Part shown: positions 13,526 through 61,602 of the stretch, one piece after another
How the letters are laid out: each line of letters opens with the position of its first letter
Position numbering within the stretch: position 1 is the stretch's first letter
Assembly (NCBI GenBank): GCA_964352815.1
Contig: CAYGTO010000003.1
Coordinates: 133,015 to 197,014 of the forward strand
Source: an uncultured Azospirillaceae bacterium
Lineage (GTDB): Bacteria > Pseudomonadota > Alphaproteobacteria > Rickettsiales > UBA3002
DNA: 64,000 bases
Direction: 5' to 3'
Notes under the pieces: generated by a model
What the model saw: only the letters and a program-made list of their open reading frames with translations
The model's database searches: none
Told to the model about the DNA's origin: nothing
Position numbers and translations under genes: made by a program

Positions 13526-13664
13526 CTACCTTATACAGATAGTACAGAAACGCGAGGGTGTGACGGAGATTTCTAAGAGAGGGTTTTTCGAGCACCGCAG
13601 CGTACATAAGTACGTGAGGATGAGAGAAAAAACATCGACACAGAAATCGCCCGCACGCTAGCGT

Positions 13665-14687: not shown

Positions 14688-14757
14688 ATGTTCTCTTGAC
14701 TACAATCGCCAGTTCCAGATAACAAGTTGATTATGTTAACAAGAGCGGAGTGTAACC

Positions 14758-15186
14758 ATGAGAAGACCCGAATGGACCAAGCCTTGGGCATGTAGGCAAG
14801 ATACCAAGGGGGGATCATGCAGTTTGCGCCATTTTCCCATTCGCGAGGCAAAAGAAGGGGATCACCCTCATGGGGGAATTCCGGGAAACTATGTTGTTGT
14901 TGAGATGGTATTTGATGATCCAGATAAGGAGCGTCTAAAGCCAGGGATTGAATCAATGCTCAATGCATATCGGGGTAATGATGGTCAGCTTTTTACCATT
15001 TTTCAGAAAGATGGTCCACCTACGAGAATGGATGTGATGGTTATGAAGCATTTTCTTTTAGAGTCTGGCTGGACAGAAACAGATATTGCAGAGGCGACAA
15101 ACCGTTATCCTGAAGCGCTAGGAGTTAACGAAAGATGGGTAGATACAGTTACTCGTGGCCAGGAAACAGCAAATATGGCTCTTTAG
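14758..15186 (+). CDS. hypothetical protein (orphan, opposite strand, inside the dcw cluster)
   Basis: 142-aa ORF filling the 0.5-kb murB-murC gap. GGAG lies 8 nt upstream of the ATG. The region looks AT-richer than its flanks. No motif recognised. Confidence 0.5.
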
Positions 15187-17896: not shown

Positions 17897-17910
17897 ACGC
17901 GCTCGTTCAG

Positions 17911-20449: not shown

Positions 20450-20452
20450 GAT

Positions 20453-21541: not shown

Positions 21542-21552
21542 GCGTCTCCTCG

Positions 21553-22989
21553 TTATGCCTCTGTTTCGTAGTCTTCGACAAGTGCAGCATTGCGATCAAT
21601 GGCTTCCACCACATCTCGCATCCGACTTCCGTTCGACCCTTTGACCAGTACAATATCACGATCCTGTAATTTCGCCACCGCTTTTGGTGCCAAACCCGCG
21701 GCGGTTTCATTATAGTCGCCGCGCATACTATCGGGCAGTTCGTCATACATGTGCTTCATCATTTGACCCGCCGCAAACACCAAATCGATCTGATTGTTGA
21801 TCAGTGCAGGCACAAGCGCGAGATGCATCTCTTGCGCCTTATCTCCAAGCTCCAACATATCGCCTAGCACTGCGACAGTACGCGAACCTTTCTCTTGCAT
21901 CTTCAGCATATAGAGCTTTTCGAATGCCGCTTCCATTGCCACAGGGCTCGCATTATAGCTATCATCAATCAGTTTTAAACTGCCGCCCTTCACCTTTAAC
22001 TTTGCGATCTTCCCGCGGCCATCTGGCTCTTGGAAGTTTGAGAGTGCCACGGCTGCTTTTGCAACATCGCCGTTCACTGCATCGACCATGCCTAATACCG
22101 CAACGGACATTAGTCCCCAATGCTTCCCAACCGCCGCAAGGCTATAACTCAAGCGCGTCTCACCAACCACCGCATGCACTTCAGAGATAAGCCCTTCGCC
22201 GCGCTCATCGAAATGATATTGCTTCATCTGACATTGCGCTTCCTCCGTTGATCCAAAGGAACGGATATCACAAAGCCCTTTTGTTTTAGCATTGGCGTTA
22301 ACACGGTCATAATGCGGGTTGTCCGCATTAATAAACGCCACGCCTTTATCGCTCATACCATCAAAGATTTCTGACTTCGCATCCGCAATCCCCTCGACGG
22401 AATCGAAGAATTCTATGTGTACTGCATCCACAGTCGTGATCACAGCCACATCAGGCTTGACCCACTGACTAAGCTGTGAAATTTCACCCGCATGATTCAT
22501 ACCCATTTCGATCACCGCATAATCGACTTTCTCTGGCATATTCGCGAGCGTCAGTGGCACGCCCAAATGGTTATTCAAATTGCCTTTTGTCGCGTACACA
22601 TCACCCAATGCCGACAGGGCGCATGACAACATTTCCTTACACCCTGTTTTGCCAACACTCCCGGTAATTCCGAGGAACGTTGCATCACTTCTACTGCGCG
22701 CATAGACACCCAATTGCTGCAGCGCCACTTCCGTATCATCCACCATGATGCATTGCTGCGCATCTACCCCCTCAGCAGGCTGCGAAACGATTACGGCAAC
22801 CGCGCCGCTCTCAATCGCATCTTTAGCATAGTCATGACCATCAAACCGCTCGCCTTTCAGCGCTACAAACAGGTCTCCTGGCGCCACCGTCCGGCTGTCA
22901 ATCGACACTCCCGTTGCTTGCCAATCTCCTTCACAGTTCACAGATAATGCGGCTGCTACATCCTCTGCATTCCATCGCGTTTTAACCAT
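21553..22989 (-). CDS. murF: UDP-N-acetylmuramoyl-tripeptide--D-alanyl-D-alanine ligase
   Basis: [10 protein letters not shown]-loop, Mur ligase domains, and position in the cluster. Confidence 0.93.
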
Positions 22990-24481
22990 GATTCACACAC
23001 TCCTTGATAATTTCTGCATCGTTAAAATGAGTTCGCTCGCCGTGAACTTCTTGATAGGTCTCATGCCCTTTACCCGCGACCACTAAAAGATCGCCCGCTT
23101 CTAATGCGTGCACTGCTTGGGTGATTGCTTCTTTACGATCACCAATATCCTGAACGTCAGCTGACCCTTGCACCTGCGCGGCACCTTGCATGATAGCAGC
23201 ACGAATCAACTCGGGGTCTTCACTACGCGGATTATCGTCGGTAATGGTCACCACATCTGCATGCTGCGCCGCAATATTTCCCATCACTTCACGTTTCTCA
23301 ACATCACGATTACCCCCGCAACCGAACACCACATGCAACCGCTTCTGCGTGTGATGACGCAGCGACGTCAGGATCGTTTCGAGCGCGTCTGGCGTATGCG
23401 CATAATCGACGAAAAGCGATGCGCCTAACGCATGTGTCGCAACCTTCTCAAGCCGACCAGTCACTCCTTGCAACTGCGCAACGTGCGGCACCATGTCTTC
23501 AGCACTGAACCCGGCATGATGGGCAAGCCCAAGCGCCGCGAGCACATTTTCCATCTGGAACAAGCCAAAGAGCGGAACACTCACCTCATGTCGCTCACCG
23601 AAGATATTCAATGTCGCGTCCAGGCCTTCAGCAGTCGCATGCAGCGCTTCTACACGGAAATCATTCCCTTCTTTCCCATACGTCAACATGTCGAAGCCAG
23701 CATCCATACATTGCTGAATCACATAGTCACTCACCTTACTGTCCGCATTGATCACGCAGCGTTTTGCAACATAATTCTGATCCAAAAACAAGCGCATCTT
23801 AGCTGCTAAGTATGCTTCTTCTGTTTTATGATAATCAAGATGGTCGTGTGTCAAATTGGTGAAAGCCGTTGCCGTCCATACCACACCATCTAATCGGTGT
23901 TGATCGAGCCCATGACTCGATGCTTCAATCGCTACATTATCAATATCATGCTGCGTGCATTGCTGCAGCATATGATGCAATGAAATAGGGTCTGGTGAGG
24001 TGTTCAGCGCAGCAAATTTCTGATCAAACGCAGGGTCACCTGTCTCCACCCCAATCGTTCCAATTGAAGCAGACTTACGCCCCGCTAACGTGCAGAGCTG
24101 ACGGTAAAATGACACCACCGAACTCTTCCCGTTCGTCCCTGTTACACCAACCATGGTGCGAGGTTGAGGTTTAAAGAACGCTGCCGCGAGACGTGCAATG
24201 GCTGCACGATCATTCGCAACCTCAACCACCGGAATCGGCGGAGAGGATAGTAGCCTACCTTCACGTACTAAGATTGCTGCTGCACCTTTCTCGATGGCTG
24301 CATCCACATACTCCACACCATCGCTTTCCGTGCCGCGAATGGCTGCGAATAAATTACCTGGCTCCACTTTCCGAGAGTCCAAAGCTAAGCCCGTCAACGT
24401 CACATCCTCTACGCATTTCGGCGCAATCATCGTTTCATGCAACAAACGGTTCAGGGAATGGTTAGCGCGGCTCATAATCAC
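22982..24481 (-). CDS. murE: UDP-N-acetylmuramoyl-L-alanyl-D-glutamate--2,6-diaminopimelate ligase
   Basis: GVTGTNGKSS P-loop, DNPR motif (ITDDNPRSEDP), and position in the cluster. Confidence 0.93.
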   Translation of the reverse strand: MIMSRANHSLNRLLHETMIAPKCVEDVTLTGLALDSRKVEPGNLFAAIRGTESDGVEYVDAAIEKGAAAILVREGRLLSSPPIPVVEVANDRAAIARLAAAFFKPQPRTMVGVTGTNGKSSVVSFYRQLCTLAGRKSASIGTIGVETGDPAFDQKFAALNTSPDPISLHHMLQQCTQHDIDNVAIEASSHGLDQHRLDGVVWTATAFTNLTHDHLDYHKTEEAYLAAKMRLFLDQNYVAKRCVINADSKVSDYVIQQCMDAGFDMLTYGKEGNDFRVEALHATAEGLDATLNIFGERHEVSVPLFGLFQMENVLAALGLAHHAGFSAEDMVPHVAQLQGVTGRLEKVATHALGASLFVDYAHTPDALETILTSLRHHTQKRLHVVFGCGGNRDVEKREVMGNIAAQHADVVTITDDNPRSEDPELIRAAIMQGAAQVQGSADVQDIGDRKEAITQAVHALEAGDLLVVAGKGHETYQEVHGERTHFNDAEIIKECVNHG

Positions 24482-26294
24482 CTCGCAACGTGGCCTGAAT
24501 CAATTGGGCTTGCTGCGGGCGAGTGGCTGGCTGTTTCTCAGTCTGGCGGACCATCTGGAACGGCTCTTTTTTCTCGGGTTCAATTTCAATGATCGGCTGC
24601 ACACCAAGGAGCGGTGCAACGCGTTCGATAATCTTTCCTGCGGTTGGCACAGCGGTCCACCCCGCCGTGGCATACCCGAAGGTTTTCTTGGTGCCACGCG
24701 GCTCATCGAGCATCGTCACCAACACATATTTCGGTTGATCTGTTGGGAATACCGACACAAATGATGTCACCATATCCTTATGCTGGTAACTTCCATTTTT
24801 GAACTTTTCTGCCGTTCCAGTTTTCCCGCCGACGCGATACCCTTTAACATTCGCCTTTGACGCGGTACCCTCTTCGACCACCATGCGCAGCATTTTACTG
24901 ATATTGCGCGATGCTTCTTCACTAATAATCCGCTCACCTTTTACGGAGGCCTTTTCTGTTTTCTGCAGCGTCAATGACAGCGATTCGCCGCCGCGCACCA
25001 ACGTACCAATCGCTTTCACCATATGCAGCGGCGACACAGAAATACCATGCCCATAGGACACCGTCATCATACTAATATCACGCCACTTTTTCGGTGTCAT
25101 CGGGTTTGCGCGCTCTGGCAATTCAATCGTTACAGGCTCGAACAAGCCGAGCTTTTTAAGGAAAGATTGCTGCTTCTCCGCGCCGACATCCATCGCAATT
25201 TTTACCGTTCCAATGTTCGACGATTGCGCAAAAATATCTGCAACACTATGCCATCCTTTCATCGGGTGATGGTCATTAATCGTATAGCCCGCCACGCGAA
25301 TCGGGTCAGAAATATCGTAGCCCTGATAGGGTGTAATCACCTCATGATGCAGCCCCATCGCGACCGTGAACGTTTTGAAGGTCGAGCCCATCTCATACAC
25401 ACCAAGCGTCGCACGATTGAACATGGCTTGCTCCGATGCGTCCGATGGACGGTTCGGATTAAACGATGGCAAGCTCGAAAGCGCGATGACCTCACCGTTA
25501 TGAATATCGGCAAGTACTGCGGTTGCGCCAATTGCTTTAAACTCTTTCATCGCTGCCTGAAGTTCTTCATGCACCACCGTTTGCGCACTTACGTCAATCG
25601 ATAAGGCAAGCGCTTCATCGGCGTAAGGCGAAGATAAGGTTTCATCGAAATATTTTTCCACGCCGGATAGGCCCTGATTATCAATCCCGACATAGCCCAG
25701 CACATGCGCCAAGATATCACCGTACGGATAAACACGCTTAGAATCTGGCTCAAAGAACAGCCCGGCAACCCCGAGTGCATTGACCTTTTCTTGTTCTTCT
25801 GGTGTAAGGTGACGTTTGATGTAAGAGAATTTAGACTCGCGCGATAGGCTATTTAGCAGCACCTCTTTCGACAGCTCCGGCAAGATACGGTGCAGTTGCG
25901 TTATCACCCATTCTTTATCACGGATAAGCTGTGGGTTCGCGACCAATGAAGCCGTGCGAATATTATCGGCAAGCACATTACCACGGCGATCGACAATCGC
26001 ATGACGCACTTTCAACTCTTTTTGCTGCGCCGCAATGACCTTCTCAGTCTCGCCATCACTGCTTAGTAAAAGCTGCGGGTTCGTGACTAACTGCTTGAAC
26101 GGAATCGCACCCACCGGCATCAGACTGACTTCGAGCACACGAATCGCTAACGCCGCATAACTCAGTGCAAACACCATGATCACGCATACGATGCGGATAC
26201 GCCCTTGATCGATGATACGTTTGGATGTGCTCTCACCATGAATCACATATTCTTTCGGGCGCCGACGCGATTCATATGCGTGCTGCCAGCGCAT
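24462..26294 (-). CDS. ftsI: peptidoglycan D,D-transpeptidase FtsI (PBP3)
   Basis: N-terminal TM anchor and transpeptidase motifs STFK, SSN and KTGT. Confidence 0.93.
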   Translation of the reverse strand: MRWQHAYESRRRPKEYVIHGESTSKRIIDQGRIRIVCVIMVFALSYAALAIRVLEVSLMPVGAIPFKQLVTNPQLLLSSDGETEKVIAAQQKELKVRHAIVDRRGNVLADNIRTASLVANPQLIRDKEWVITQLHRILPELSKEVLLNSLSRESKFSYIKRHLTPEEQEKVNALGVAGLFFEPDSKRVYPYGDILAHVLGYVGIDNQGLSGVEKYFDETLSSPYADEALALSIDVSAQTVVHEELQAAMKEFKAIGATAVLADIHNGEVIALSSLPSFNPNRPSDASEQAMFNRATLGVYEMGSTFKTFTVAMGLHHEVITPYQGYDISDPIRVAGYTINDHHPMKGWHSVADIFAQSSNIGTVKIAMDVGAEKQQSFLKKLGLFEPVTIELPERANPMTPKKWRDISMMTVSYGHGISVSPLHMVKAIGTLVRGGESLSLTLQKTEKASVKGERIISEEASRNISKMLRMVVEEGTASKANVKGYRVGGKTGTAEKFKNGSYQHKDMVTSFVSVFPTDQPKYVLVTMLDEPRGTKKTFGYATAGWTAVPTAGKIIERVAPLLGVQPIIEIEPEKKEPFQMVRQTEKQPATRPQQAQLIQATLRGDYEPR

Positions 26295-26614
26295 CAGCGA
26301 ACTCCCTCATCCGCCTGCGCGACATGCTCACCTTTTTGCTGCAATGGCAGCACTGAGATTTCTACCACACGCTCTGCATTCATCGGCTTCATGGGAAGCA
26401 GTGCATTCGACAAACGCCGCAAACGTGACGGGTGATTAAGCGCTGCCCACTCAAGCGTTAACATTGAAAGCGATTCTTTCTCATGGTGCAGCTGATCTTC
26501 CAGAGCAAGGTTCGCTTGGCGCAACTCTTCCACCTGATACTTCACCATATACAGACCATAGGCCGCGACGGCGAAGACGATAACCCAGCTCAACATGTTA
26601 AATTTCATACTCAT
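26294..26614 (-). CDS. ftsL: cell division protein FtsL
   Basis: 106-aa protein with a single TM helix and a coiled coil; located between rsmH and ftsI. Confidence 0.75.
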   Translation of the reverse strand: MSMKFNMLSWVIVFAVAAYGLYMVKYQVEELRQANLALEDQLHHEKESLSMLTLEWAALNHPSRLRRLSNALLPMKPMNAERVVEISVLPLQQKGEHVAQADEGVR

Positions 26615-27594
26615 GCCGCCACCTCTAATTTACGCGCCGCGCGCAATTTGGCAGAACGTGCACGCGGGTTTGCGCGTGACTCTTCATCGCTGGCAAGCAT
26701 CGCTTTCTTATTGATCAGCGCCAATTCCAACACATTCTCATTCGCCGGCATATCCGGTAAATGGCGCGACACACCGCCGCCCGTCTGCTCACTATGGTCT
26801 TTGAAAAACCGCTTCACGATCCGGTCTTCGAGCGAATGGAACGTCACCACCACCAGCCGGCCACCCGGCTTCAGAAGTGACTTTGCCGCTTCGAGCCCGC
26901 GCTGCACTTCGCCCAGCTCATCATTCACCGCGATGCGCAACGCCTGAAATGTTTTGGTTGCCGGATCGGTTTTCCCGCCCTTATTACCAATCGCTTTGCT
27001 GACAATTTCTGAAAGCTGTAGCGTCCGCTCAATCGGCTGCTCATTACGCGCCGCAACGATTGCCTTTGCAATTCGGCGCGAGGCACGCTCTTCACCATAC
27101 AGATAAATCAGATCAGCCAGCTCTTTTTCTGGAAGCGTATTAACCAATTCTGATGCGCTACGCGTCGCCACCGCATCTCCGTTTTCTCCCGCCATGCGCA
27201 TATCGAGTGGCCCGTCTTTCTGAAAGGAAAAGCCACGTTCCGCCTGATCAATCTGCATGGACGAGACCCCGAGATCCATCACCACCCCATCGATGGATTC
27301 AATCCCATGCGCGGCCAACAAAGCAACCATATCACTGAAACAGCCAGAACAAAAAAGAAAGCGCCCGGGAAAATCCCGGGCAAGCGCTTCGGCAAGCATC
27401 ACTACATTCGGATCACGATCGATCGCGATCACCGTGCACTGCGCCGCATTCAGCAGCGCGCGCGTATATCCTCCAGCGCCAAAGGTCGCATCGAGATAGG
27501 TCTCATCATCGGCTGGCGCCAATGTTTCCAACACCTCTGGCAACATCACCGGCACGTGCCCACCGGAATCTGATGTCTGCTCTAGCTCTCTCAC
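26611..27594 (-). CDS. rsmH: 16S rRNA (cytosine1402-N4)-methyltransferase
   Basis: HVPVML entry, DATFGAGGY and DLGVSS motifs. Confidence 0.95.
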   Translation of the reverse strand: MRELEQTSDSGGHVPVMLPEVLETLAPADDETYLDATFGAGGYTRALLNAAQCTVIAIDRDPNVVMLAEALARDFPGRFLFCSGCFSDMVALLAAHGIESIDGVVMDLGVSSMQIDQAERGFSFQKDGPLDMRMAGENGDAVATRSASELVNTLPEKELADLIYLYGEERASRRIAKAIVAARNEQPIERTLQLSEIVSKAIGNKGGKTDPATKTFQALRIAVNDELGEVQRGLEAAKSLLKPGGRLVVVTFHSLEDRIVKRFFKDHSEQTGGGVSRHLPDMPANENVLELALINKKAMLASDEESRANPRARSAKLRAARKLEVAA

Positions 27595-27624
27595 CCGTGT
27601 CGCCCCTGGTCATTGACTGACCCG

Positions 27625-28469: not shown

Positions 28470-28540
28470 GGTTTTAGTTTTCAGGTTGTAGGTTACAGCA
28501 TGGCTATTTCTGAAACCTGCAACCTAACACCTACAACCTA
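28470..28540. repeat. inverted heptamer arrays (GGTTTCA/TGAAACC family) forming a hairpin at the rnpB 3' end
   Basis: The left arm is ggtttta gttttca ggttgta ggttaca. A 13-nt loop follows. The right arm is tgaaacc tgcaacc taacacc tacaacc. On the minus strand the hairpin is followed by TTTAT. Confidence 0.75.
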
Positions 28541-28544
28541 TCCA

Positions 28545-29042
28545 ACGAAGAGGGCCGATAAGCCGGGTTCTGTCACTGGCATTGCCAGGGATGGCCATTC
28601 ATCTAGGCCGCTTGTTGCCAAACGGCTCATGCACCCTACCCGAGATGCTGGTGCGAAACTCACTTGCGGCGATTACCTTTGCACTACCAAAAGCGTTCGG
28701 ACACGGCCGCGCGCATCTCCTATTTGGGCTTGCTCCAGACAAGGTTTACCATGCCGCCTGTGTTACCAAAGGCGCGGTGGGCTCTTACCCCACCCTTTCA
28801 CCGTTGCTTTGCATATGCTCCCCGCTTCGGTCGTCTGACCTACGCGATGGAGCGCCGCTCAGGGCTGGCCTTGCTGCTGCAAGGAATATTGCCCCGAAAC
28901 TACATACAAAGCAGTCTACTTTCTGTGGCACTGTCTCTCGGATCACTCCGGGCGGGGGTTACCCGCTGCCTTGTTTCGTGGAGCCCGGACTTTCCTCCCC
29001 CTATCGCGAGCGATAGAGAGCGACCATCTGGCCCTCTTCGGA
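28545..29042 (-). ncRNA. rnpB: RNase P RNA (bacterial type A)
   Basis: The reverse complement contains GGAGGAAAGTCCGGGCTCCA, GGTGAAAGGGTGGGGTAAGAGCCCACCGC, GGTAAAC, GAGCAAGCCCAAATAGG, CCTAGATGAATGG and ACAGAACCCGGCTTATCGGCC. The P1 helix is formed by GAAGAGGGCC/GGCCCTCTTC at the two ends. Confidence 0.93.
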
Positions 29043-35061: not shown

Positions 35062-35077
35062 TGCATTATTTCACTAT

Positions 35078-35233
35078 GTCATCTTCGGGGCTTTTGTCAG
35101 TAAGACAAAAGAGCCCGGGGATCCAGGATAAACATGTCAGAAGACATGTTTATTTCCATGAATGTCTTCTGACATTCATGGAATGGATTGCCTGCGACTC
35201 GTGGTATACTGACCACTCGCGCGTGGCAATGAC
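35078..35233. repeat. long (156 bp) four-hairpin variant of the GTCAT...ATGAC element, purS-purQ spacer
   Basis: GTCATCTTCGGGG...GTGGCAATGAC, with perfect internal hairpins ataaacatgtc-agaa-gacatgtttat and ttccatgaatgtc-ttct-gacattcatggaa. Confidence 0.85.
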
Positions 35234-38907: not shown

Positions 38908-38917
38908 TATTTTTATT

Positions 38918-39074
38918 GTCATCCTCGGGGCTTTTGTCAGCAAGACAAAAGAACCCGGGGATCCAGAATCTAAAAGGTCAGAAGACCTTTTAGATTTCTC
39001 ATGAAGTCTACTGACTTCATGAGAATGGATTGCCTGGATGCGTTCGCTTACTGCTCACTTACCGTGGCAATGAC
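38918..39074. repeat. long (157 bp) four-hairpin variant of the GTCAT...ATGAC element, purL-bolA spacer
   Basis: The ends are near-identical to 35078-35233. The internal hairpins are aatctaaaaggtc-agaa-gaccttttagatt and tctcatgaagtc-tact-gacttcatgaga. Confidence 0.85.
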
Positions 39075-39713: not shown

Positions 39714-40289
39714 TTAAAACCCGCGGCCTTGATCTTTCTCTTTCCCCGGTACTTGCTGCACATTATTCGATAGCTCTCCCAAGCTGCTCAAATTCGCGAG
39801 CTGCATCGTCGTGAAAATACCTTTTTTTGCCAGTTCCATCCCAATATTCTCAACCTCTCGCTCTGCCCCGGGGCGCACCAGAAACGCCTCTTTGAGACGC
39901 TTCAGCGTCTCGCGCGAAAAGAAATAGGCCAGCCACCCCTGACGCACCGCTTCTTTTTTGCGCTCTTGCTCCGCCTCGCGCTGACGCTCGAGAATGGCTT
40001 TGAGCAGCTGCGCTTTTTCAGCATCGAGCGCCTGGACAATTTCTTGCACTTTTCGCACCAGCTCCTGACGCATCGTATCGTTCATATGCTCAACAATTTC
40101 CGCGATGAGAAGATCCACATCCTTATTCCCCGCCAACACCTGCTCGACGATCAGATCAATGTCGTTCTGATAGAGCTTGAGCAGCTCTTCCGGGTCATAG
40201 CCGGCCGGCTTCCCCGCGCGCAGAAAGCCCACCGCGGTGAACATCACCTGGTTGATATTGGCTTTCTTGAGCTGTTTGGGCATGGGCAT
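39714..40289 (-). CDS. hypothetical coiled-coil protein
   Basis: 191-aa ORF, charged and helical; no motif recognised. Confidence 0.5.
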   Translation of the reverse strand: MPMPKQLKKANINQVMFTAVGFLRAGKPAGYDPEELLKLYQNDIDLIVEQVLAGNKDVDLLIAEIVEHMNDTMRQELVRKVQEIVQALDAEKAQLLKAILERQREAEQERKKEAVRQGWLAYFFSRETLKRLKEAFLVRPGAEREVENIGMELAKKGIFTTMQLANLSSLGELSNNVQQVPGKEKDQGRGF

Positions 40290-40533: not shown

Positions 40534-41151
40534 TTAACGTGAATAGAATTCCACCACGAGGTTTGGCTCCATCTGCACCGGATACGGGATATCCATCAGC
40601 TGTGGCACGCGTTTGAAGGTGCCTTTGAAGCCTTGATCTTCTAACACAATATATTCTGGTGTTTCGCGCTCAGCGCTGCCCACCGCTTCAATCACCATCG
40701 GAATCTGGCGTGACTTTTCTTTCACTTCCACCACATCGCCGACTTTTAGGCGGTAGCTTGGAATGTTAATTTTTTTGCCATTCACTTTCACATGACCGTG
40801 ATTCACGAACTGGCGCGCCGCGAAGACGGTTGGCACCACGCGCATGCGGTAGATCACCGCATCCAGGCGCTGCTCAAGCAAGCCAACGAGATTCTCTGAC
40901 GTATCGCCTCTCAGGCGCACGGCTTCCGCATAAATGCGGCGGAACTGTTTTTCCGTCAGATCGCCATAATATTTTTTCAATTTTTGCTTCGCGCGCAGCT
41001 GCGTTCCGAAGTCAGACAGCTTGCGGCGGCGGAGCGGCCCATGCTGACCTGGCGTATATGAACGGCGGTTAACAGGGTCTTTTGCGCGGCCCCAAAGGCT
41101 CTCACCTAGGCTACGGCTAATTTTGTATTTAACAGGACTTCTACGACTCAT
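40534..41151 (-). CDS. rpsD: 30S ribosomal protein S4
   Basis: [17 protein letters not shown] entry and S4 RNA-binding domain. GAGGAAAG lies upstream of ATG 41151. Confidence 0.95.
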
Positions 41152-41307: not shown

Positions 41308-41391
41308 GTCATTCTCGACGGCGCTGCTGCGCATGTCGGGAATCTAACCGATACGATCCCCGAGACGAACAGCAGTTCGCTCGAGGATGAC
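41308..41391. repeat. nested-palindrome element (GTCAT...ATGAC family)
   Basis: GTCATTCTCGAC...GTCGGGAATCT...GATCCCCGAGAC...CTCGAGGATGAC. Its reverse complement is largely colinear with the copy at 54193-54277. Confidence 0.85.
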
Positions 41392-41409: not shown

Positions 41410-42081
41410 TTAAAGCTGTGCTTGCTGCTGTGGTGCGGCTACATTGAGGCCACCATCCAGCGCCATGCTTGCAGTCGCAAGCTGCGTGCCTGTCATATTG
41501 TGCGGCATTTGCGGCGTACCGAAGGCCGGCGCCATCGCCATTTGCTGCGTTGCGTTTTGCAAGACCGCTTCACGCATTTGATTTTCTGCAGTCAGGCGTT
41601 CATTTGCTACGGCAAGTTCCGCACGTTCTGCAGCCAATGCACGTGCTTCTTCACTATCGCCTGAGCTGCGCGTCATGGCTGATACGGCTGCTAAGCCACC
41701 TGCGACGGCGGTAACACCTGCGGCAGGATACAAGAATTTCTTACTGACCATAAAGTTAGCAGTGCCCTTACCAAGGTTATATACCTTACTTCCTACGTAA
41801 CCAAGGCCTTTGCCTGTGTAGTTTGCGGCTGCAGCACCTAGAGCATCTGCCTCTAACGCAGTTGCAGCTCTCGCACCACTAGCAGCCGTTGTAGCCGCTT
41901 TACCCACGGTCTCTAAACCTGCTTGATACGCTGGCCCAAGTCTTTGTGCTGTACCAGCTGCGACTTCACTCCCCGCACCCGATAAAAACTTTGAACCTTT
42001 TCTTAAAGGCCAAAGGGCAACTTTACCGATAGTCTCGGGAATTCTTACTGCGCCAGTTGCTAATTTGCCTAACATGCTCAT
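41410..42081 (-). CDS. hypothetical Gly/Ala-rich protein, paralogue of the upstream gene
   Basis: Start placed at MSMLGK (42081), 10 nt after the upstream stop. Ala/Gly-rich, with one hydrophobic segment, a coiled coil (ERAELAVANERLTAENQ) and a C-terminal MAPAFGTPQMP motif. Confidence 0.55.
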   Translation of the reverse strand: MSMLGKLATGAVRIPETIGKVALWPLRKGSKFLSGAGSEVAAGTAQRLGPAYQAGLETVGKAATTAASGARAATALEADALGAAAANYTGKGLGYVGSKVYNLGKGTANFMVSKKFLYPAAGVTAVAGGLAAVSAMTRSSGDSEEARALAAERAELAVANERLTAENQMREAVLQNATQQMAMAPAFGTPQMPHNMTGTQLATASMALDGGLNVAAPQQQAQL

Positions 42082-42091
42082 TTTTACTATC

Positions 42092-42691
42092 CTATCTCGT
42101 TGCTTCCTGCAGCAGGGCGGCGTCTCGCACTTGCCCTTGATACGCTGCTTCATTCATATCCACCGCTGCACTGCCTGGCACACCGCCGGCAAAGGCTGGG
42201 TGCATCGCTTGGCGTGGCTGCGCGCGTTCCATCACAGCCTGCTGCAACATGCCCGCTGCCTGTTCTTGCTGTGCGCGTACATTCATCAGCTGACGCGTGG
42301 TTTCTTGCTCTGCTTGCAACCCGCGCGCTTGCCCGCGGATCACTTCGTTTTTCTTGCCACCGAGCAGGCCTGTTACTGTTGAGGCCACCGCACCGGTTGC
42401 ACCGCCTACAGGTGTTCCAGCGACGGCTCCAACCAAGCCAGCGCCACCACTAATGATTCCTACAGTGGTTGCTAACGTGGTAAAAAAGCTCGTTGATGCA
42501 ACGATTCCCACTGCGCCGCCAACAAGCCCTAGAACAGCTCCGATACCTAATGCAAAGGGTAGCGCCGCAACTGCAAACGCGATTCCGCCGGCTATGGCGC
42601 CTGTAAAACCGCTTTCCGCGGAGCTTTCGAGCACTCTGCGTCCATATGATTTCGGGCGTGCTGTTTCAAAATTAGTTCCATCTAATGGCAT
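42092..42691 (-). CDS. hypothetical glycine-zipper membrane protein
   Basis: About 85 aa of uninterrupted Gly/Ala/Val-rich hydrophobic sequence, then a Gln-rich coiled coil and an AMHPAFAGGVP motif. Confidence 0.55.
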   Translation of the reverse strand: MPLDGTNFETARPKSYGRRVLESSAESGFTGAIAGGIAFAVAALPFALGIGAVLGLVGGAVGIVASTSFFTTLATTVGIISGGAGLVGAVAGTPVGGATGAVASTVTGLLGGKKNEVIRGQARGLQAEQETTRQLMNVRAQQEQAAGMLQQAVMERAQPRQAMHPAFAGGVPGSAAVDMNEAAYQGQVRDAALLQEATR

Positions 42692-43153
42692 GATTCGCTC
42701 ACATAGTTTTATTTACTATGACTAATCTACCATTTCGCCATTAGCCTGTGTGTGACAGTTTTATGACAATTGCGGATGGAAATCGCTTGAGAAGCGATTT
42801 TCAACGCAAAATCAGAGAAAGCTTAGCGTTGCAAGGCGAATGCCGCGGCAATGCTTAGCGGATCTGTGGTGTTCGCCCCCGCTCCGGCCTGCTGGCCTCA
42901 TGAGAAAAAAGCGTTGATAATGCTTTTTTCGAAAATCTCTCCGAGGCTTGCTTTTTATGAGGCGCCTGTCCTCCGAAGCCTTAGCGAAGGAGGAAGTGTA
43001 TCGAGCCGATGTAAAAAGCCTAGCCGCAGGTGTGGTTTTTATATTTGCTCCTGCTCGGTCTCCTGACCTCGCAATGAGCCTAACGCCTCCGGCGACTAAA
43101 GGGCTTCGCCTACTGGCTGCACGCCCATAACAAACTGATTTAATTAATTTTAT

Positions 43154-43984
43154 CTACCTAAACTCAAACAGCGCTCGGAAAATCCCATGCCAGGTGTTTA
43201 CTTCCTGCGTGCTAAGGTCCGCTCTCAATAAAGAAGTGCGGATATTGCGCCACATGGCAGACTTTTTCTCGGGCACGCTCCAGAAATTCGCCTGATCAAG
43301 CATGGGTTCAAGCTGGTCAAACAGCGCCTGTAGCTCACCGTGGGTTGCATTTACACCGTCATCCTGAGAGAGCGCAGCGACCGAAGGATCTTCTATCCTG
43401 TGGCGCGATAGATCCTTCGCCGGCGGCTCAGGATGACGAAGATTAGCCTCCCGAATCCCGAATTCTTGCCTAAACCACTCATAACACACAATATTAACTG
43501 CTTGACCAAGATTCAGGGACGGATAGTCCGGATTCGCCGGAATCGGCAGAATCGCCTGCGCCAGCGTGACATGTTCATTGGTCAGGCCCGTGCGTTCTGG
43601 GCCGAAAAGAATGGCTACACTGTCATCCCGCGATTTAATCGCGGGATCTCTACTTGCATCCAGAGATCCCCTGGTCAAGCCACGGGATGACAACATTTCA
43701 CTAATATCCGCCTCCGGCTTATGCATCTCTCGGTCGCGCGCCGTGGTGGCCAGTACATAGTCACAGTCCGCTATGGCCGCTTCTAACGTGTCATAGAGCT
43801 GCGCCGCCTCAATCAGGTGCTTTGCCCCCGCCGACAGGCTCAGCGCCCGCTCATTGGGCCAGCCATCGCGCGGATTGACAATTCTAAGCTCCGACACGGC
43901 GAAATTATGCATTGCCCGCGCCGCCGCACCAATATTCTCGCCCATTTGCGGCTCAACGAGGATGATTTTCGGAGATTGTTGCAT
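43154..43984 (-). CDS. SpoU/TrmH-family RNA 2'-O-methyltransferase (TrmJ/LasT-like) with two repeat-derived insertions
   Basis: ILVEPQMGENIGAAARAM, ILFGPERTGL and SLNLGQAV motifs. The extra segments LSSRGLTRGSLDASRDPAIKSRDDS and HPEPPAKDLSRHRIEDPSVAALSQDDG coincide with the two repeat copies. Confidence 0.85.
   Translation of the reverse strand: MQQSPKIILVEPQMGENIGAAARAMHNFAVSELRIVNPRDGWPNERALSLSAGAKHLIEAAQLYDTLEAAIADCDYVLATTARDREMHKPEADISEMLSSRGLTRGSLDASRDPAIKSRDDSVAILFGPERTGLTNEHVTLAQAILPIPANPDYPSLNLGQAVNIVCYEWFRQEFGIREANLRHPEPPAKDLSRHRIEDPSVAALSQDDGVNATHGELQALFDQLEPMLDQANFWSVPEKKSAMWRNIRTSLLRADLSTQEVNTWHGIFRALFEFR
43358..43437. repeat. nested-palindrome element (GTCATCCTGAG subfamily) inside the methyltransferase CDS
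   Basis: 80 bp, identical at 75 of 80 positions to 45121-45200, in the same orientation. Confidence 0.9.
43622..43691. repeat. nested-palindrome element (GTCATCCCGCG variant) inside the methyltransferase CDS
   Basis: GTCATCCCGCG-atttaat-CGCGGGATCTCT-acttgcatcc-AGAGATCCC-ctggtcaagcca-CGGGATGAC. Confidence 0.85.
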
Positions 43985-44053
43985 TGCACCACTACAGTTC
44001 ATTGTTTTTTAATGATTTTTCATTATTGTTATATGGTCTAAAAGGAAAATGCA

Positions 44054-44836
44054 ATGCCACGTAGAAAGAACACTGTAAACGTCAAAATACTCGCTTTGGT
44101 CGACACGCTGGATTTACTGCTATCATTAAAAGAAGCAGATCTGCCTGAGGGTGAAACTGATTTATTCCCTGGTCTTGTAGGCCTTCCTGTCTACAAATCC
44201 GCTGATTATCAGTCACAAATCAAACAGTTAAATCTTGCTATGAAATCACTTGCTGACACAATGGGTAAACAACCAATATCTTTTGGCAAATCGGAACGTG
44301 ATCATGATAGGGAAGCTGGCGGCCTGTATGTACTTCATGTTTCTATTCCCGAACCACCTCATGAATATTTAGATATATTACGTACATTTCTAGAAACTCA
44401 TAAAACTAAGCATGGCATTCCAGAAGGCTTCATCGATTACCGCCATACCCCCCAGATGCCTGTGGATTTGTTGATTGCGTGTTTAGCTGAAGTTAGAGAA
44501 AACTCGGCCCCTGAAGATACATCTGCAACATTAGAAACACCAATAAACAACGGGTTACATGCCGCTGCGCTTTCTAAACTCCTCAACGCAGCCAAAGCCA
44601 GCGCTTACGGCGATACGCATGAAATACTATTTAAACCTGCATATACAGGAGTCGAAGTAACCTCATCAGGCATAGGACTGCACGAAGCGATTGATAAGCT
44701 GACATCAAACTTAAAACAGCCAGAGAGAAAGAAGGCGTTTGCTAATCACATCCAACAACCCGATTTCGCGCGGGCAGCTCAAAGCGTTTACGCTGCTTAC
44801 GTAGCGCCAATTGCGCGTTCACATGGGTATGTTTAG
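44054..44836 (+). CDS. hypothetical protein (orphan)
   Basis: 260-aa ORF, AT-richer than neighbours by eye; no motif recognised. Confidence 0.5.
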   Translation: MPRRKNTVNVKILALVDTLDLLLSLKEADLPEGETDLFPGLVGLPVYKSADYQSQIKQLNLAMKSLADTMGKQPISFGKSERDHDREAGGLYVLHVSIPEPPHEYLDILRTFLETHKTKHGIPEGFIDYRHTPQMPVDLLIACLAEVRENSAPEDTSATLETPINNGLHAAALSKLLNAAKASAYGDTHEILFKPAYTGVEVTSSGIGLHEAIDKLTSNLKQPERKKAFANHIQQPDFARAAQSVYAAYVAPIARSHGYV

Positions 44837-46512
44837 CCAAGCAACCCGTAGGTAAGCGCGTCTTTGAGCGCCTCATAGGACGCATCGATAATGTTGTGCG
44901 ACACACCGATCGTGGTCCAGCTTTGACCCTTCTCATTCGTGCTTTCGATCATCACACGGGTCAGCGCGGCCGTTGCATCTTTCGGCGTTAGAATTCGCAC
45001 TTTGTAGTCACTCAGATGCATTTTCTTGAGCTTTGGATAGGTCGGCATTAGCGCGGCACGCAGCGCGGCATCGAGTGCATTGACCGGGCCATTACCCTCG
45101 CCTGCTGTCAGGCAGGTACCGTCATCCTGAGAGAGCGCAGCGAGCGAAGGATCTTCCATCCTGTGACACGATAGATCCTTCGCCTGCGGCTCAGGATGAC
45201 GGTTTGTTTTTTTGGATTTTGTAGCAACCGTCAGCTTCACCGTCGCCTCCGACACCGTCACCTTTCTGCCCTTCGCATTAAATCGCCGCTCATCAGTAAC
45301 ACGGAAATGCTCCAGCTCAAAAAATTCGGGCACCAGCCCCAGCTTCCGGCGCACGAGCAGCTCAAAACTCGCATCGGCATCTTCATAGGCATAGCCAAGT
45401 TTCTCGCGCTCCTTGATCAGCTTGACCAAATCATCCAGCTTCGGGTTCTCTTTCTCTTTGCCAAGCCCCATCGCTTCGAGGCGGGTGATGATGTTTGACT
45501 TACCCGCCTTATCGGACACCAGAATCTGGCGCTGATTGCCGACTTGCGCCGGATCAATATGCTCATAGCTCTTCGTGCTTTTCGCCATCGCCGAGACATG
45601 CAAGCCGCCCTTATGCGCAAAGGCCGCGCTACCAACATAGGGCAAATGGCTATTCGGAATCCGGTTCAGCCGCTCATCGACCAGGCGCGACAACTTTACC
45701 AGCTGCTGAAGTTTTTTCTCAGACGCGCCGGTTTTATAGCCCAGCTTCAGCATCAGATTTGGAATGATCGAAATCAAATTCGCATTGCCGCAGCGCTCGC
45801 CAATCCCGTTGATCGTGCCTTGCACCTGGCGCACGCCCGCTTCCACCGCCGCGATTGAATTCGCCACGGCCTGTTCGGTGTCGTTATGGCAATGAATGCC
45901 CAAATGATCGCCCGGAATATGCTGCGTAATTTGCGTTACAATCTCGCTGATCTCATGCGGCAGCGTGCCGCCATTCGTATCACACAGCACCACCCAGCGC
46001 GCGCCGGCCTCATACGCGGCTTTCAGGCAATCAAGCGTGTAGTCTGAGTTCGCCTTGAACCCGTCGAAACAGTGTTCCGCATCAAACAAAACTTCGCGCT
46101 TTTTCGACACCGCATGGGCGATACTGTCGGAAATCATTTTCACATTCTCTTTTTGTGAGACGCCCAATGCGTTCTCGACCTGCCAATCCCAGCTTTTGCC
46201 GACGATGCATAACGCGCCCGGATGCGCATCGAGCAGCGCGTTCAGCCCCGGATCATTCGCCGCGCTACGGCCATTGCGCCGCGTCATGCCAAAGGCAGTG
46301 ACCTTCGCTTTTTTAAGCTTCGGCTGTTCCGCAAAAAATTGATCATCTGTCGGGTTCGCGCCCGGCCATCCGCCTTCAATATAATCAATGCCGAACTCAT
46401 CGAGCGCCTTCGCAATCGCGATTTTATCAGACACGGTGAAATCAACCCCACGCGCCTGCGCGCCATCGCGCAGGGTGGAATCATAGAGAGTAATGCGGTC
46501 TTGTTTAGTCAT
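44833..46512 (-). CDS. cimA: citramalate synthase-type LeuA-family enzyme with a repeat-derived insertion
   Basis: LYDSTLRDGAQ entry, HCHND metal motif and a C-terminal LeuA-dimer domain. Start placed at MTKQDR (46512). The extra segment RHPEPQAKDLSCHRMEDPSLAALSQDDG coincides with the repeat. Confidence 0.8.
   Translation of the reverse strand: MTKQDRITLYDSTLRDGAQARGVDFTVSDKIAIAKALDEFGIDYIEGGWPGANPTDDQFFAEQPKLKKAKVTAFGMTRRNGRSAANDPGLNALLDAHPGALCIVGKSWDWQVENALGVSQKENVKMISDSIAHAVSKKREVLFDAEHCFDGFKANSDYTLDCLKAAYEAGARWVVLCDTNGGTLPHEISEIVTQITQHIPGDHLGIHCHNDTEQAVANSIAAVEAGVRQVQGTINGIGERCGNANLISIIPNLMLKLGYKTGASEKKLQQLVKLSRLVDERLNRIPNSHLPYVGSAAFAHKGGLHVSAMAKSTKSYEHIDPAQVGNQRQILVSDKAGKSNIITRLEAMGLGKEKENPKLDDLVKLIKEREKLGYAYEDADASFELLVRRKLGLVPEFFELEHFRVTDERRFNAKGRKVTVSEATVKLTVATKSKKTNRHPEPQAKDLSCHRMEDPSLAALSQDDGTCLTAGEGNGPVNALDAALRAALMPTYPKLKKMHLSDYKVRILTPKDATAALTRVMIESTNEKGQSWTTIGVSHNIIDASYEALKDALTYGLLG
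45121..45200. repeat. nested-palindrome element (GTCATCCTGAG subfamily) inside cimA
   Basis: 80 bp, identical at 75 of 80 positions to 43358-43437. Confidence 0.9.
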
Positions 46513-46621
46513 GACGAGCATTAGGCGAGATTTTTGCAAAAAAATCAAGAATCGTCACAATTCTGAAACAATCCTATGTTATTAAGCCCAAATATTAAGA
46601 ATATAAGGAAGGACAAATAAG

Positions 46622-54168: not shown

Positions 54169-54192
54169 CGGCCACCTTCCTGTTCGTTTTTC

Positions 54193-54277
54193 GTCATCTT
54201 CGAGCGAACTGCTGTTCGCCTCGGAGATCTATGTTACATCAGATTCCCGACGCTCGCTAGGCTCGGTCGAGAATGAC
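54193..54277. repeat. nested-palindrome element (GTCAT...ATGAC family) upstream of etfB
   Basis: GTCATCTTCGAG-cgaactgctgttcgc-CTCGGAGATCT...AGATTCCCGAC...GTCGAGAATGAC. Confidence 0.85.
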
Positions 54278-54354
54278 GATTTTGTTATTAGAATGATTAT
54301 AGCCGGAAATGCGCTTGCTCTCAAGCGACACTATGGATGCGTTGCAGCATGAAT

Positions 54355-60250: not shown

Positions 60251-61210
60251 ATGTCGAAAAGTACATCCAAAACCCCCTTCGCATTCCAGGATATCATCCT
60301 GACACTTCAGCATTTTTGGGCGGAGCAGGGGTGCGTGATTTTGCAGCCCTACGACATGGAAGTGGGCGCCGGGACGTTCCACCCCGCGACGACGCTACGC
60401 GCGCTCGGACCGGAGCATTGGAACGCGGCCTATGTTCAGCCTTGCCGCCGCCCATCCGATGGCCGTTACGGTGAAAACCCCAACCGGCTGGGCCATTATT
60501 ATCAGTTTCAGGTCATTCTGAAGCCCTCACCCGACAACATCCAGCAGCTTTATCTCGACTCGATCGCCGCGCTCGGCATCGATCCGCTCAAACATGATAT
60601 TCGTTTCGTGGAAGATGACTGGGAATCCCCTACTCTTGGCGCGTGGGGGCTGGGCTGGGAAGTCTGGTGCGACGGCATGGAAGTGACGCAATTCACCTAT
60701 TTTCAGCAAGTGGGCGGCATTGAGTGCAAGCCCGTCTCCGGCGAGCTAACCTACGGGCTGGAGCGGCTGGCGATGTATATTCAGGGCGTTGAGAATGTGT
60801 ATGACCTGGTATGGAATCAGGTGCCTGGTGCCAGGGGCCAGGGGTCAGGAAGTCATCCTGAAACCCGAAACCTGAAACCTGTAACCTATGGCGATGTGTT
60901 CCTACGCAATGAACGCGAGCAAACCGCCTATAGCCTAGAGCATGCAAACACCGACATATTGCTGCAACATTTTAAAGATGCCGAAGCCGAATGCGCGCAG
61001 CTTCTTGAAAAGAAACTTGCTTTGCCTGCCTATGATCACTGCATCAAAGCCTCGCATCTGTTCAACCTGCTCGATGCGCGTGGGGTGATTTCGGTGACCG
61101 AACGTGCGGCATATATTGGCCGCGTCCGCGCCTTAGCCAAAGGCTGCTGTGAAGAATATGTGAGGGGTCAGGTTTCAGGTTTCGGGTTTCAGGAAAAAGA
61201 GGCTTCATGA
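60251..61210 (+). CDS. glyQ: glycine--tRNA ligase alpha subunit, with an internal and a C-terminal repeat-derived segment
   Basis: [17 protein letters not shown] entry, colinear with E. coli GlyQ. The extra [22 protein letters not shown] lies before YGDVF. The C-terminus [14 protein letters not shown] is encoded by the heptamer array. Confidence 0.92.
60820..60886. repeat. inverted heptamer arrays inside glyQ
   Basis: The left arm is ggtgcct ggtgcca ggggcca ggggtca. The loop is aagtcat. The right arm is cctgaaa cccgaaa cctgaaa cctgtaa. Confidence 0.8.
61164..61193. repeat. heptamer array, left arm flanking the four-helix-bundle gene
   Basis: ggggtca ggtttca ggtttcg ggtttca gg. This is the inverted complement of 61570-61600. 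Confidence 0.8.
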
Positions 61211-61587
61211 TTCGTTCTTATCAGGATTTAGAGGTGTGGAAGAAATCCTTGAGGCTGGTTAAAGACGTGTATGGCTGCACAAGACTTTACCCAAAATCCG
61301 AACTCTATGGCCTTGTAAGCCAGACACAACGAGCCGCTGTATCGGTGCCAGCCAATATTGCTGAAGGCCGCACGCGTTATTCCAAAAAAGATTTTGTTTC
61401 TCATTTGAAGATTGCTTCTGGCTCTTTAGCCGAGCTTGAAACGCATCTTTTCATTGCCACTGAACTCGGCTATATCACGATAGAACAGCGAGACGCTTTG
61501 TTAAATACATCCGCCGAGATAGGCCGGATGCTCAATGGCCTGGTGAATTCGTTGAAAAGCGAAAAACAACTGGAACCCGAAACCTGA
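61207..61587 (+). CDS. four-helix-bundle protein (23S rRNA intervening-sequence protein / Avd-like family)
   Basis: LEVWKKS..L.....Y.....[44 protein letters not shown] matches the family signature. There is an ATGA overlap with the glyQ stop. Confidence 0.88.
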
Positions 61588-61600
61588 CACCTGAAACCTA
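61570..61600. repeat. heptamer array, right arm flanking the four-helix-bundle gene
   Basis: ctggaac ccgaaac ctgacac ctgaaac cta. It encodes the last residues (LEPET) of the four-helix-bundle ORF. Confidence 0.8.
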
Positions 61601-61602
61601 TT

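Follow-up and report, generated by a model that had tools for sequence, protein, structure and literature searches.

Our analysis of a 64,000-nucleotide stretch of DNA from an uncultured alphaproteobacterium (the window) revealed that two tandem genes encoding Gly/Ala-rich proteins, here called A and B, have syntenic counterparts: at least 13 further distinct loci, drawn from alphaproteobacterial MAGs and metagenome contigs, contain an A-like gene with a B-like gene behind it. On balance, we lean towards the view that A and B are the constant members of a lineage-restricted, vertically inherited cluster of Gly/Ala-rich inner-membrane proteins (g1, g2, A-like, and B-like) located between trmJ and rpsD. 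Both open reading frames were found on the minus strand where the preliminary description had placed them, with a gap of 10 nt between them, and the sequences of A and B were identical in two independent read sets, ERR3535001 and ERR3535002. The neighbors of the pair are housekeeping genes, namely cysS, cimA, trmJ, rpsD, grx, bolA, and purL. The features of the locus are as follows:

43154..44002, minus strand: trmJ-like SpoU methyltransferase gene, the upstream synteny anchor (Pfam PF00588, E 2e-26; TIGR00050)
42692..43153, no strand: trmJ-A spacer of 462 bp; g1 or g1 plus g2 occupy the same site in relatives
42092..42691, minus strand: gene A, 199 aa, predicted polytopic Gly/Ala-rich membrane protein (ORF and match to the A-like family HMM)
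42356..42613, minus strand: A residues 27-112, uncharged glycine-zipper-like hydrophobic core of 86 residues (hydropathy, AF2)
42224..42349, minus strand: A residues 115-156, predicted long Gln/Ala/Arg-rich helix after the core (AF2, family alignments)
42182..42205, minus strand: A residues 163-170, MHPAFAGG, Pro/aromatic/Gly break after the helix (family alignments)
41410..42081, minus strand: gene B, 223 aa, predicted bitopic membrane protein (ORF, AGGA 9 nt before the ATG, position)
41674..41730, minus strand: B residues 118-136, YPAAGVTAVAGGLAAVSAM, predicted single Gly/Ala-rich transmembrane (TM) segment (hydropathy, B-like alignment)
41536..41670, minus strand: B residues 138-182, predicted long helix, rich in Ala, Glu, Arg, and Gln, that extends the TM segment without a break (AF2)
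41413..41535, minus strand: B residues 183-223, MAPAFG, then a tail rich in Pro, Gln, and Thr with predicted disorder (AF2, B-like alignment)
41308..41391, no strand: copy of a palindromic repeat just past the B stop codon (fold and repeat alignment)
40534..41151, minus strand: rpsD, encoding ribosomal protein S4, which anchors the synteny on the downstream side (at most 72% identity to alphaproteobacterial S4)

The evidence for a conserved locus comes mainly from gene order. Of the 13 further loci, 12 have 2 to 20 nt between the A-like and B-like genes, the B-like gene being split in locus L090, and a gene for a bitopic protein follows the A-like gene in every locus seen. Where both flanks were visible, the pair was found between trmJ and rpsD in 11 of 12 loci. 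A-like and B-like genes occupy the trmJ-to-rpsD gap in L006, L033, L045, L037, and L043, as well as in L084, L085, L086, L089, L090, L091, and L092, while the pair is also present in L088 and on the contig of P0024. The trmJ gene adjoins the cluster in all related loci with a visible upstream side. Most other alphaproteobacteria have trmJ next to rpsD or parted from it by unrelated genes such as murI. A scan of genome contigs with rpsD yielded matches, and the same scan with TrmJ yielded 0, the source genome being missed as well, which places it outside the GTDB representatives. The relatives usually carry, upstream of the pair, one or two additional genes for Gly-rich membrane proteins (g1 and g2), and the window lacks both. 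The g1 protein is possibly related to the A-like proteins, as judged by their profiles (hhalign probability 61%, P=8e-5). The gene count of the cluster ranges from 1 to 4, hence no single component is strictly essential. The host clade carries various labels (Rickettsiales, "Azospirillum", unclassified MAGs) and is a poorly sampled group of alphaproteobacteria. The fixed trmJ-rpsD position of this lineage-restricted cluster speaks more for a cellular function passed on by vertical descent than for a pair of mobile toxins or effectors. The codon usage of A and B is atypical for the genome (GC3 of 0.49 and 0.41, respectively, compared with approximately 0.6; CAI of 0.57 and 0.53 compared with approximately 0.7), which could reflect low expression, relaxed constraint, or foreign origin.

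Single-sequence searches gave a different picture. Protein homologue searches with A or B had only the queries themselves among the matches listed, the 8000 candidates considered probably being crowded by low-complexity words, and phmmer, run exhaustively with B on 1.84 billion representatives, returned B alone. ORFan status was nevertheless rejected for both proteins, since the syntenic A-like and B-like relatives contradict these self-only results. A tblastn search with A and B against the related loci missed relatives later seen by eye and by profile. A metagenome scan retrieved 0 loci with window A as the first row and 2 loci with a typical A-like member in that place. No family match was obtained for A or B in Pfam (E≤1), NCBIfam, PHROGs, PADLOC, or PDB sequences, nor any match by tblastn in 72,556 plasmids. 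PDB profile searches with the alignments A5, A6, and A8 gave nothing meaningful (best 9qef_E, E 0.037). PHROGs and PADLOC searches with typical relatives gave none either, save two PHROGs of unknown function (E≥0.002) for one relative. The literature on glycine zipper or coiled-coil proteins of alphaproteobacteria provided nothing relevant, and the same was true of the run accessions ERR3535000-ERR3535003, to which the two read sets belong. The pair is conserved by synteny and matches no described family, in line with the earlier view that its role is not assignable from sequence.

Profile comparisons place A in a previously unnamed family of proteins of about 170-230 residues. A leave-one-out HMM built from five syntenic relatives matched A with an E-value of 1.7e-7 (30.8 bits), the next unrelated ORF having an E-value of 0.39, and hhalign of A against its A-like relatives gave a probability of 95% (E 3e-8). 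A profile search collected 23 A-like family proteins, 0 of which had a Pfam domain and none of which was named beyond "hypothetical protein"; members include P0003-P0024, for example [quoted passage not shown]. Conservation is striking over the first 13 residues of the family members, and the N-terminal P-x-x-x-G motif is kept. An uncharged glycine-zipper-like core follows, with 64-88 residues in most members and K/R on both flanks, and past it come R-x-x-E/Q-x-G, a Gln/Ala helix, an aromatic-Pro-Gly break, and finally a tail of low complexity. With 19-29% identity, window A is the most divergent member, yet it has this layout, from the core (27-112) with its K/R flanks through the basic junction and the helix (115-156) to MHPAFAGG, and shares its landmarks, partner gene, and chromosomal position with P0003-P0024. 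It differs from them by a longer post-core helix, by the absence of the C-terminal ...LQRA ending, and by a cluster that lacks g1 and g2.

The preliminary description had credited A with some 85 residues of glycine-zipper-like sequence, and residues 27-112 indeed form 86 consecutive positions without D, E, K, or R. This core contains 22 G and 17 A, with a mean Kyte-Doolittle value of 1.46 and 19-residue windows reaching up to 2.3. G...G pairs at i,i+4 number 9 compared with 5.2 ± 1.7 in shuffled sequences (p ~0.03), while triple small-xxx-small patterns number 16 compared with 10 ± 2.8 (p ~0.035). The i,i+4 spacing of small residues thus exceeds the expectation from composition, only modestly. 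The core probably makes two to four membrane passes and has four K/R in the 15-residue flank on each side. AF2 placed helices at 25-59, 69-80, and 96-107 inside it, with low confidence. The junction after the core is GGKKNEVIRGQARG, and the post-core helix lines up with R-V-S-x-E-K-G-A-A of the family and the QAQ-rich helix behind that motif. Residues 115-160 include 10 Q in 46 positions and AF2 predicts a helix at 115-156 (block pLDDT 67-81). Of the Gln-rich coiled coil proposed earlier for A, a long Gln-rich helix is all that the model shows. In the alignment, MHPAFAGG at 163-170 takes the place of the FPPQG or APGF of the relatives. By inspection, the N-terminus of A (MPLDGTNFETARPKSYGRR...) is without a hydrophobic leader or a lipobox Cys.

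The assignment of B is weaker. An HMM of 11 B-like proteins, with B left out, ranked B first of 1504 window ORFs at an E-value of 0.017, whereas a five-sequence B-like HMM did not list B at E≤10 and hhalign of B against the B-like proteins gave P=0.0038 with a probability of 9%. B is barely detectable by B-like profiles and is the most divergent member. Its placement in the B-like family rests on position and architecture, the sequence signal being weak and not statistically secure. The layout common to B and the B-like proteins is a TM segment followed by a helix; the Pro that starts the TM segment and one Gly are invariant across the B-like alignment. In the single-sequence AF2 model, the TM segment runs straight into the helix (119-182; pLDDT 72-88 at 150-180). 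The single hydrophobic segment previously claimed for B is thus found at 118-136, while what had been called its coiled coil is seen only as a long helix. Residues 183-188 are MAPAFG, and the segment 183-223 aligns with the AMAxP... tails of B-like proteins from three-gene loci. As for A, inspection of the N-terminus (MSMLGKLATGAVRIPE...) revealed neither a hydrophobic leader nor a lipobox Cys. A ribosome-binding site, AGGA, is located 9 nt 5' of the B start codon.

Are A and B related to each other? They had been described as paralogues sharing a C-terminal PAFG module, and neither point is established. BLASTP of A against B was not significant (E 0.66), and the supposed module dissolves in the wider families: A-like proteins keep aromatic-Pro-Gly (FPPQG or APGF), while the B-like proteins nearest to B, which come from three-gene loci, keep AMAxP. 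A shuffle test of the two C-terminal modules gave a score of 58 compared with 35.5 ± 6.5 (p ~0.007), and hhalign of the A-like against the B-like proteins gave P=3.5e-4 and a probability of 37% with the window sequences and P=0.024 without them. From such comparisons, paralogy of A and B is suggestive only. The pair does fit the description of tandem Gly/Ala-rich membrane-type proteins that are alike in layout, each with a hydrophobic segment, a long polar helix, and a tail that contains Pro. Between A-like proteins and their B-like partners, the longest tail stretch free of Pro and Gly, a rough and noisy proxy for the helix, did not co-vary in length (Spearman -0.36, p 0.23).

The palindrome said to bracket the pair folds into a genuine hairpin (41308-41391; dG -47.1 kcal/mol, z -4.7), but it is one of the copies of a dispersed repeat rather than an element peculiar to the pair. 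The repeat has the termini CGTCATCC...GGATGACG, and seven copies were aligned from the window. It may serve incidentally as a hairpin at the transcript end. Short-read assemblies of the locus break near the palindrome. On the other side of the pair, the non-coding region reported as about 460 bp measures 462 bp (42692-43153), and no gene remnant or Rfam match was detected in it. Searches of this spacer for internal repeats, a sigma-70-like promoter, or an Rfam family were negative and terminators occurred at chance level only. The g1 and g2 HMMs found no decayed copy among the six-frame ORFs of the window, spacer included.

Taken as members of the trmJ-rpsD cluster, A and B most likely form a co-translated and vertically inherited inner-membrane heteromer. 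The AF2 models have low confidence (pLDDT 56 for A and 49 for B), so topology and oligomerization can only be inferred. A would span the membrane as a single or double helical hairpin whose two termini are in the cytoplasm, as predicted from the positive-inside rule because both flanks of the core are net positive, and would self-associate via small-xxx-small helix packing. B would be made in step with A from one transcript and would join it via its Gly/Ala-rich TM helix, possibly also via the post-membrane helix, to give a heteromeric membrane assembly. From the charge balance, the C-terminal helix of B may be on the side of the membrane opposite to that of A, in which case the two helices would not pair outside the bilayer. 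Such an assembly would serve the membrane of the cell itself in a structural or homeostatic role, as a scaffold, a stabilizer, or a small channel, rather than act as a mobile toxin. The organism of the window would have reduced the cluster to its A-B core.

Several known systems resemble parts of this arrangement. Small-xxx-small hydrophobic helices are also found in the glycine-zipper families (Rick_17kDa_Anti/Gly-zipper 2TM PF05433, Gly-zipper_Omp PF13488, and Gly-zipper_YMGG PF13441), although the core described here is much longer (64-88 residues), lacks a lipoprotein signal, and is followed by a long polar helix and a tail. A signal peptide or lipobox is typical of the outer-membrane lipoprotein members of these families. 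PF05433, PF13488, and PF13441 were absent from the Pfam matches of 22 A-like and 12 B-like proteins. Single relatives matched the mitochondrial C19orf12 (PF20721, E 0.021) and Romo1 (PF10247, E 0.39) families below threshold. The MICOS subunit Mic10 is a small hairpin membrane protein of ~80-100 residues in which glycine motifs drive oligomerization. The proteins studied here are twice as long (170-230 residues), have a C-terminal helix and tail, and lack the in-register GxGxGxG, and no match to the Mic10 Pfam family was found at E≤1 in 22 A-like, 12 g1-like, and 7 g2-like proteins. By analogy, g1, g2, A, and B might constitute a new membrane-organizing complex, confined to a deep lineage of alphaproteobacteria, of Mic10-like zipper oligomers that shape or partition the membrane or, if these bacteria live inside eukaryotic cells, Inc-like SNARE-mimicking anchors, their polar helices and conserved short tail motifs (FPPQG..MNQAG, ..LQRA) recruiting partners; we regard this idea as a long shot.

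A rival proposal is that A and B are translocated effectors of a host-associated bacterium, with a bilobed hydrophobic domain in a vacuole membrane and a C-terminal helix or coiled coil facing the host cytosol. In chlamydial Inc proteins such as IncA, a short N-terminus precedes a hydrophobic domain of unusual length, and the C-terminal part is helical or coiled-coil. The architecture of A, with its short N-terminus, the hydrophobic block that spans 64-88 residues in its family, and its helical C-terminus, is compatible with theirs, yet this feature is not Inc-specific, and the pair shows no sequence similarity to Inc or other effector families. The Rickettsiales labels of several A-like relatives and the conserved 13-residue N-terminus of the family would also suit an effector, as would the palindromic repeats that sit in-frame inside genes of the source genome, a trait best known from Rickettsia. 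However, the cluster is fixed among housekeeping genes in divergent genomes, while the effector sets known so far tend to be scattered and variable. Moreover, a run of co-oriented, unannotated ORFs in the window resembles a cell-wall/division (dcw) cluster in layout, which would not fit a strongly reduced symbiont, and no secretion-system genes were noted among the listed ORFs of the 64 kb, a weak negative as most of these are unannotated. We therefore consider an effector pair unlikely.

It is also improbable that the locus encodes a membrane-stress or envelope-homeostasis module, comparable to PspB/PspC or to mycobacterial Rv2743c/Rv2742c, that senses or buffers damage and recruits a soluble partner. 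As in PspB/PspC and FtsB/FtsL-type pairs, adjacent genes encode small membrane proteins in which a TM segment runs into a helix capable of pairing, and glycine-zipper proteins are often tied to stress. Two g1 homologues even matched Pfam Rv2743c weakly (best E 0.059), but all such matches are far below curated thresholds. In contrast to these pairs, A is polytopic; A and B have no PspB or PspC match, nor any sequence match to FtsB/FtsL-type proteins, no division genes are adjacent, and no pspA/IM30-type gene was located near any examined locus.

The absence of g1 and g2 from the window, the position of A and B as the most divergent members of their families (identity of about 25-29% in the case of A), and their low GC3 and CAI could be read as signs of decay, with the pair being non-functional low-complexity leftovers of a cluster that is being lost. 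This would be a rather poor bet: both frames are intact and full-length, the landmarks (N-terminal Pro/Gly, core, basic junction, helix, and Pro break) are in order, the 10-nt spacing and the ribosome-binding site of B are kept, and the two read sets agree. Least convincing is the earlier suggestion of a pore-forming or toxic pair (holin-like, two-component bacteriocin-like, or membrane-active toxin), which we hold to be very unlikely despite the glycine-zipper helices typical of many pore-formers, the atypical codon usage, and a very weak NCBIfam match of A to alpha-xenorhabdolysin subunit A (E 0.18, 11 bits compared with a cutoff of 125), since inspection revealed neither a signal peptide nor a leader, genes for immunity, export, or lysis are absent from the surroundings, the PHROGs, PADLOC, and plasmid searches were without match, and synteny is stable and vertical over divergent genomes.

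If the reading of A and B as the core of a trmJ-rpsD membrane cluster holds, up to four linked protein families would be added that have no Pfam, NCBIfam, or PDB coverage. The alignments A5/A6 (A-like), A8 (B-like), A9 (g1), and A10 (g2) provide seeds for these new families, and the synteny rule trmJ-[cluster]-rpsD offers a way to locate further members; the pair is no ORFan artefact. The families would mark a poorly known alphaproteobacterial clade that carries a compact, co-translated membrane module. Near the Rickettsiales radiation, such lineage-specific membrane modules are candidates for a role in envelope organization or host interaction.

The interval between trmJ and rpsD in this window is occupied by two tandem genes, A and B, which encode small Gly/Ala-rich membrane-type proteins and are separated by 10 nt:

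44002..43154, minus strand: trmJ-like SpoU methyltransferase gene, upstream flank of the pair
42691..42092, minus strand: A, ORF of 199 aa
42081..41410, minus strand: B, ORF of 223 aa
41151..40534, minus strand: rpsD (ribosomal protein S4), downstream flank of the pair

The preliminary description of both ORFs and their layout was correct. The sequence AGGA is located 9 nt 5' of the B start codon (ATG, 42081). A longer B ORF from 42153 was set aside, as it would overlap A and was without support from relatives. The uncharged stretch of A covers residues 27-112 (86 residues, including 22 Gly and 17 Ala), with hydropathy windows up to 2.3 and a modest excess of small residues at i,i+4 spacing over the composition expectation (p about 0.03). 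The AlphaFold2 model of A, based on a 22-sequence alignment, had low confidence (pLDDT 56), its best part being a helix at residues 115-156, followed by a loop with MHPAFAGG (163-170) and a last helix. B has one hydrophobic segment, also Gly/Ala-rich (residues 118-136), which in a single-sequence AlphaFold2 model extends as one helix to residue 182 (pLDDT 72-88 at 150-180); the C-terminus then consists of MAPAFG and a disordered tail.

To place the pair in context, we compared 80 alphaproteobacterial rpsD loci. In most of them, trmJ and rpsD were adjacent or separated by unrelated genes such as murI. In the relatives closest by S4 and by U191, a coiled-coil protein gene downstream of rpsD, the same gap holds genes with the A/B layout in the same order, and A and B are therefore not orphans. 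With a leave-one-out HMM of five A-like proteins (counterparts of A in related loci), A was detected at E=1.7e-7, the best unrelated ORF being at E=0.39, and hhalign matched A to this family with 95% probability. Profile searches gathered 23 A-like proteins, none with a Pfam domain (0/23) and all named 'hypothetical protein' at most. Their alignment begins with a (V/I)-x-P-(V/I)-(D/N)-H-G motif, continues with a long uncharged core with K/R flanks and R-V-S-x-E-K-G-A-A leading into a QAQ-rich helix, and ends with F-P-x-Q-G..M-N-Q-A-G, frequently with an LQRA terminus.

Seven more contigs presented the gene order cysS-cimA-x-trmJ-g1-(g2)-A-like-B-like-rpsD, where g1 and g2 are further Gly-rich membrane genes, followed by grx and purL where the contig was long enough (bolA was annotated in one locus). 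The A-like/B-like pair was kept on two further contigs. Twelve of the 13 other loci had 2-20 nt between the two genes, and the B-like gene of L090 was called as two ORFs. Across genomes the cluster ranges from one to four genes, and the g1 product is perhaps distantly related to the A-like proteins (61% probability in hhalign). The window has A and B alone: neither the 462-bp spacer between trmJ and A nor the rest of the 64 kb contained a detectable remnant of g1 or g2. The MAG whose S4 matched best has a single 141-aa Gly-rich membrane ORF (L004:9484-9909) in the trmJ-rpsD gap; by eye it resembles g2 (FRWAP, a C-terminal hydrophobic block, then a Pro-rich tail), which suggests that different cluster members were lost in different lineages. 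U191 itself (191 aa, window 39714-40289, minus strand) was confined to the clade with the A/B cluster (L084:9823-10335; L089:5204-5764) and duplicated in one relative (L085:8589-9116 and 9408-9953); its sole Pfam match, to dsDNA_bind, was weak and below threshold.

A B-like HMM of 11 proteins ranked B as the top window ORF, yet at E=0.017, and hhalign of B with the B-like proteins gave P=0.0038. The assignment of B thus rests mainly on position and architecture. A and B had been proposed as paralogues sharing a coiled coil and a PAFG module. BLASTP between them was not significant, and the profile-profile P of 3.5e-4 became 0.024 without the window sequences. For the post-membrane modules, a composition-preserving shuffle test gave p about 0.007, the alignment being collinear from the helix start to the PAF motif. 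On these results together, paralogy of the C-terminal modules is no more than plausible. The proposed shared PAFG motif was not conserved: the A family keeps an aromatic-Pro-Gly break, while B-like proteins of three-gene loci share AMAxP.

Searches of A and B against Pfam, NCBIfam, PHROGs and PADLOC returned no matches, PDB sequence profiles gave nothing meaningful, and tblastn found no match in plasmids. Among the matches listed from single-sequence searches of 5.8 billion proteins, A and B each recovered only themselves, as did B in an exhaustive phmmer search of 1.84 billion representatives. The source genome is absent from the GTDB species representatives and its S4 protein has at most 72% identity to any of them, indicating an alphaproteobacterium without close sequenced relatives. 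The A-B pair is genuine and conserved rather than an ORFan artefact, and the two families it represents fall outside all known ones and had not been described before.

The palindrome that had been taken to bracket the pair is not part of it. This stable hairpin (41308-41391; dG -47 kcal/mol, z -4.7) belongs to a dispersed family of palindromic repeats whose termini are CGTCATCC...GGATGACG, and of which seven window copies were aligned:

41308-41391, 54192-54278, 35077-35129 and 38917-38969: intergenic copies
45118-45201: copy in cimA (44833..46548, minus strand)
43355-43438 and 43621-43692: copies in trmJ (43154..44002, minus strand)

The copies are about 55-85 nt long and share the 5' terminus GTCATC, most ending in GGATGAC. 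Some sit in-frame within conserved protein genes, similar to Rickettsia palindromic elements: cimA has a 33-aa insertion (TNRHPEPQAKDLSCHRMEDPSLAALSQDDGTC) missing in four orthologues, and trmJ a 12-residue insertion at 43621-43692 missing in six, while copy 43355-43438 falls in the variable linker region of trmJ. In the spacer 5' of A, neither repeats nor a consensus promoter were found, and Rfam gave no match. Short-read Logan assemblies of the same organism (L001, L002 and L003, from ERR3535001 and ERR3535002) break on either side of A-B, at about 41363 and 43055-43077, leaving a 1.7-kb contig with A and B only, its downstream break being within the palindromic repeat.

Our preferred reading is an inner-membrane assembly that is co-expressed and vertically inherited, rather than a toxin pair or mobile effectors. 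It rests on the fixed housekeeping position in divergent genomes, the tight A-B coupling and the lack of signals for mobile elements, phages, plasmids or defence. By the positive-inside rule, A would probably span the membrane as a single or double helical hairpin, its termini lying in the cytoplasm; glycine-zipper packing would drive its oligomerisation, and B would join it via its Gly/Ala-rich transmembrane helix. Charge balance suggests that the B helix could be periplasmic. The longest Pro/Gly-free tail segment, a rough proxy of helix length, did not co-vary between partners. An Inc-like translocated effector and a Psp-like stress module have less support than this vertically inherited assembly, as does a pore or toxin. 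Counted against the assembly or as open, together with the charge balance and the lack of co-variation, were the low-confidence structure models, the cluster content of one to four genes, and, unusual for this genome, the low GC3 (A 0.49, B 0.41; neighbours about 0.6) and CAI (A 0.57, B 0.53; neighbours about 0.7). Decaying genes were likewise less supported. An unannotated 260-aa ORF in the cimA-trmJ gap (44054-44836) had similarly low values (GC3 0.35, CAI 0.52), and the gene at its position is different in each relative.

Elsewhere in the window, a 7-nt unit (CCTGAAA/CTGAACC) forms short arrays at 14391-14422, 28510-28541, 60857-60889, 61163-61193 and 61570-61601, the second directly adjoining the RNase P RNA gene (28543-29039). 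A long co-oriented ORF run at about 8700-27600 (minus strand) has a layout like that of a cell-division/cell-wall (dcw) cluster, as read from the unannotated ORF listing. If it is such a cluster, a complete peptidoglycan pathway would be present in this organism.
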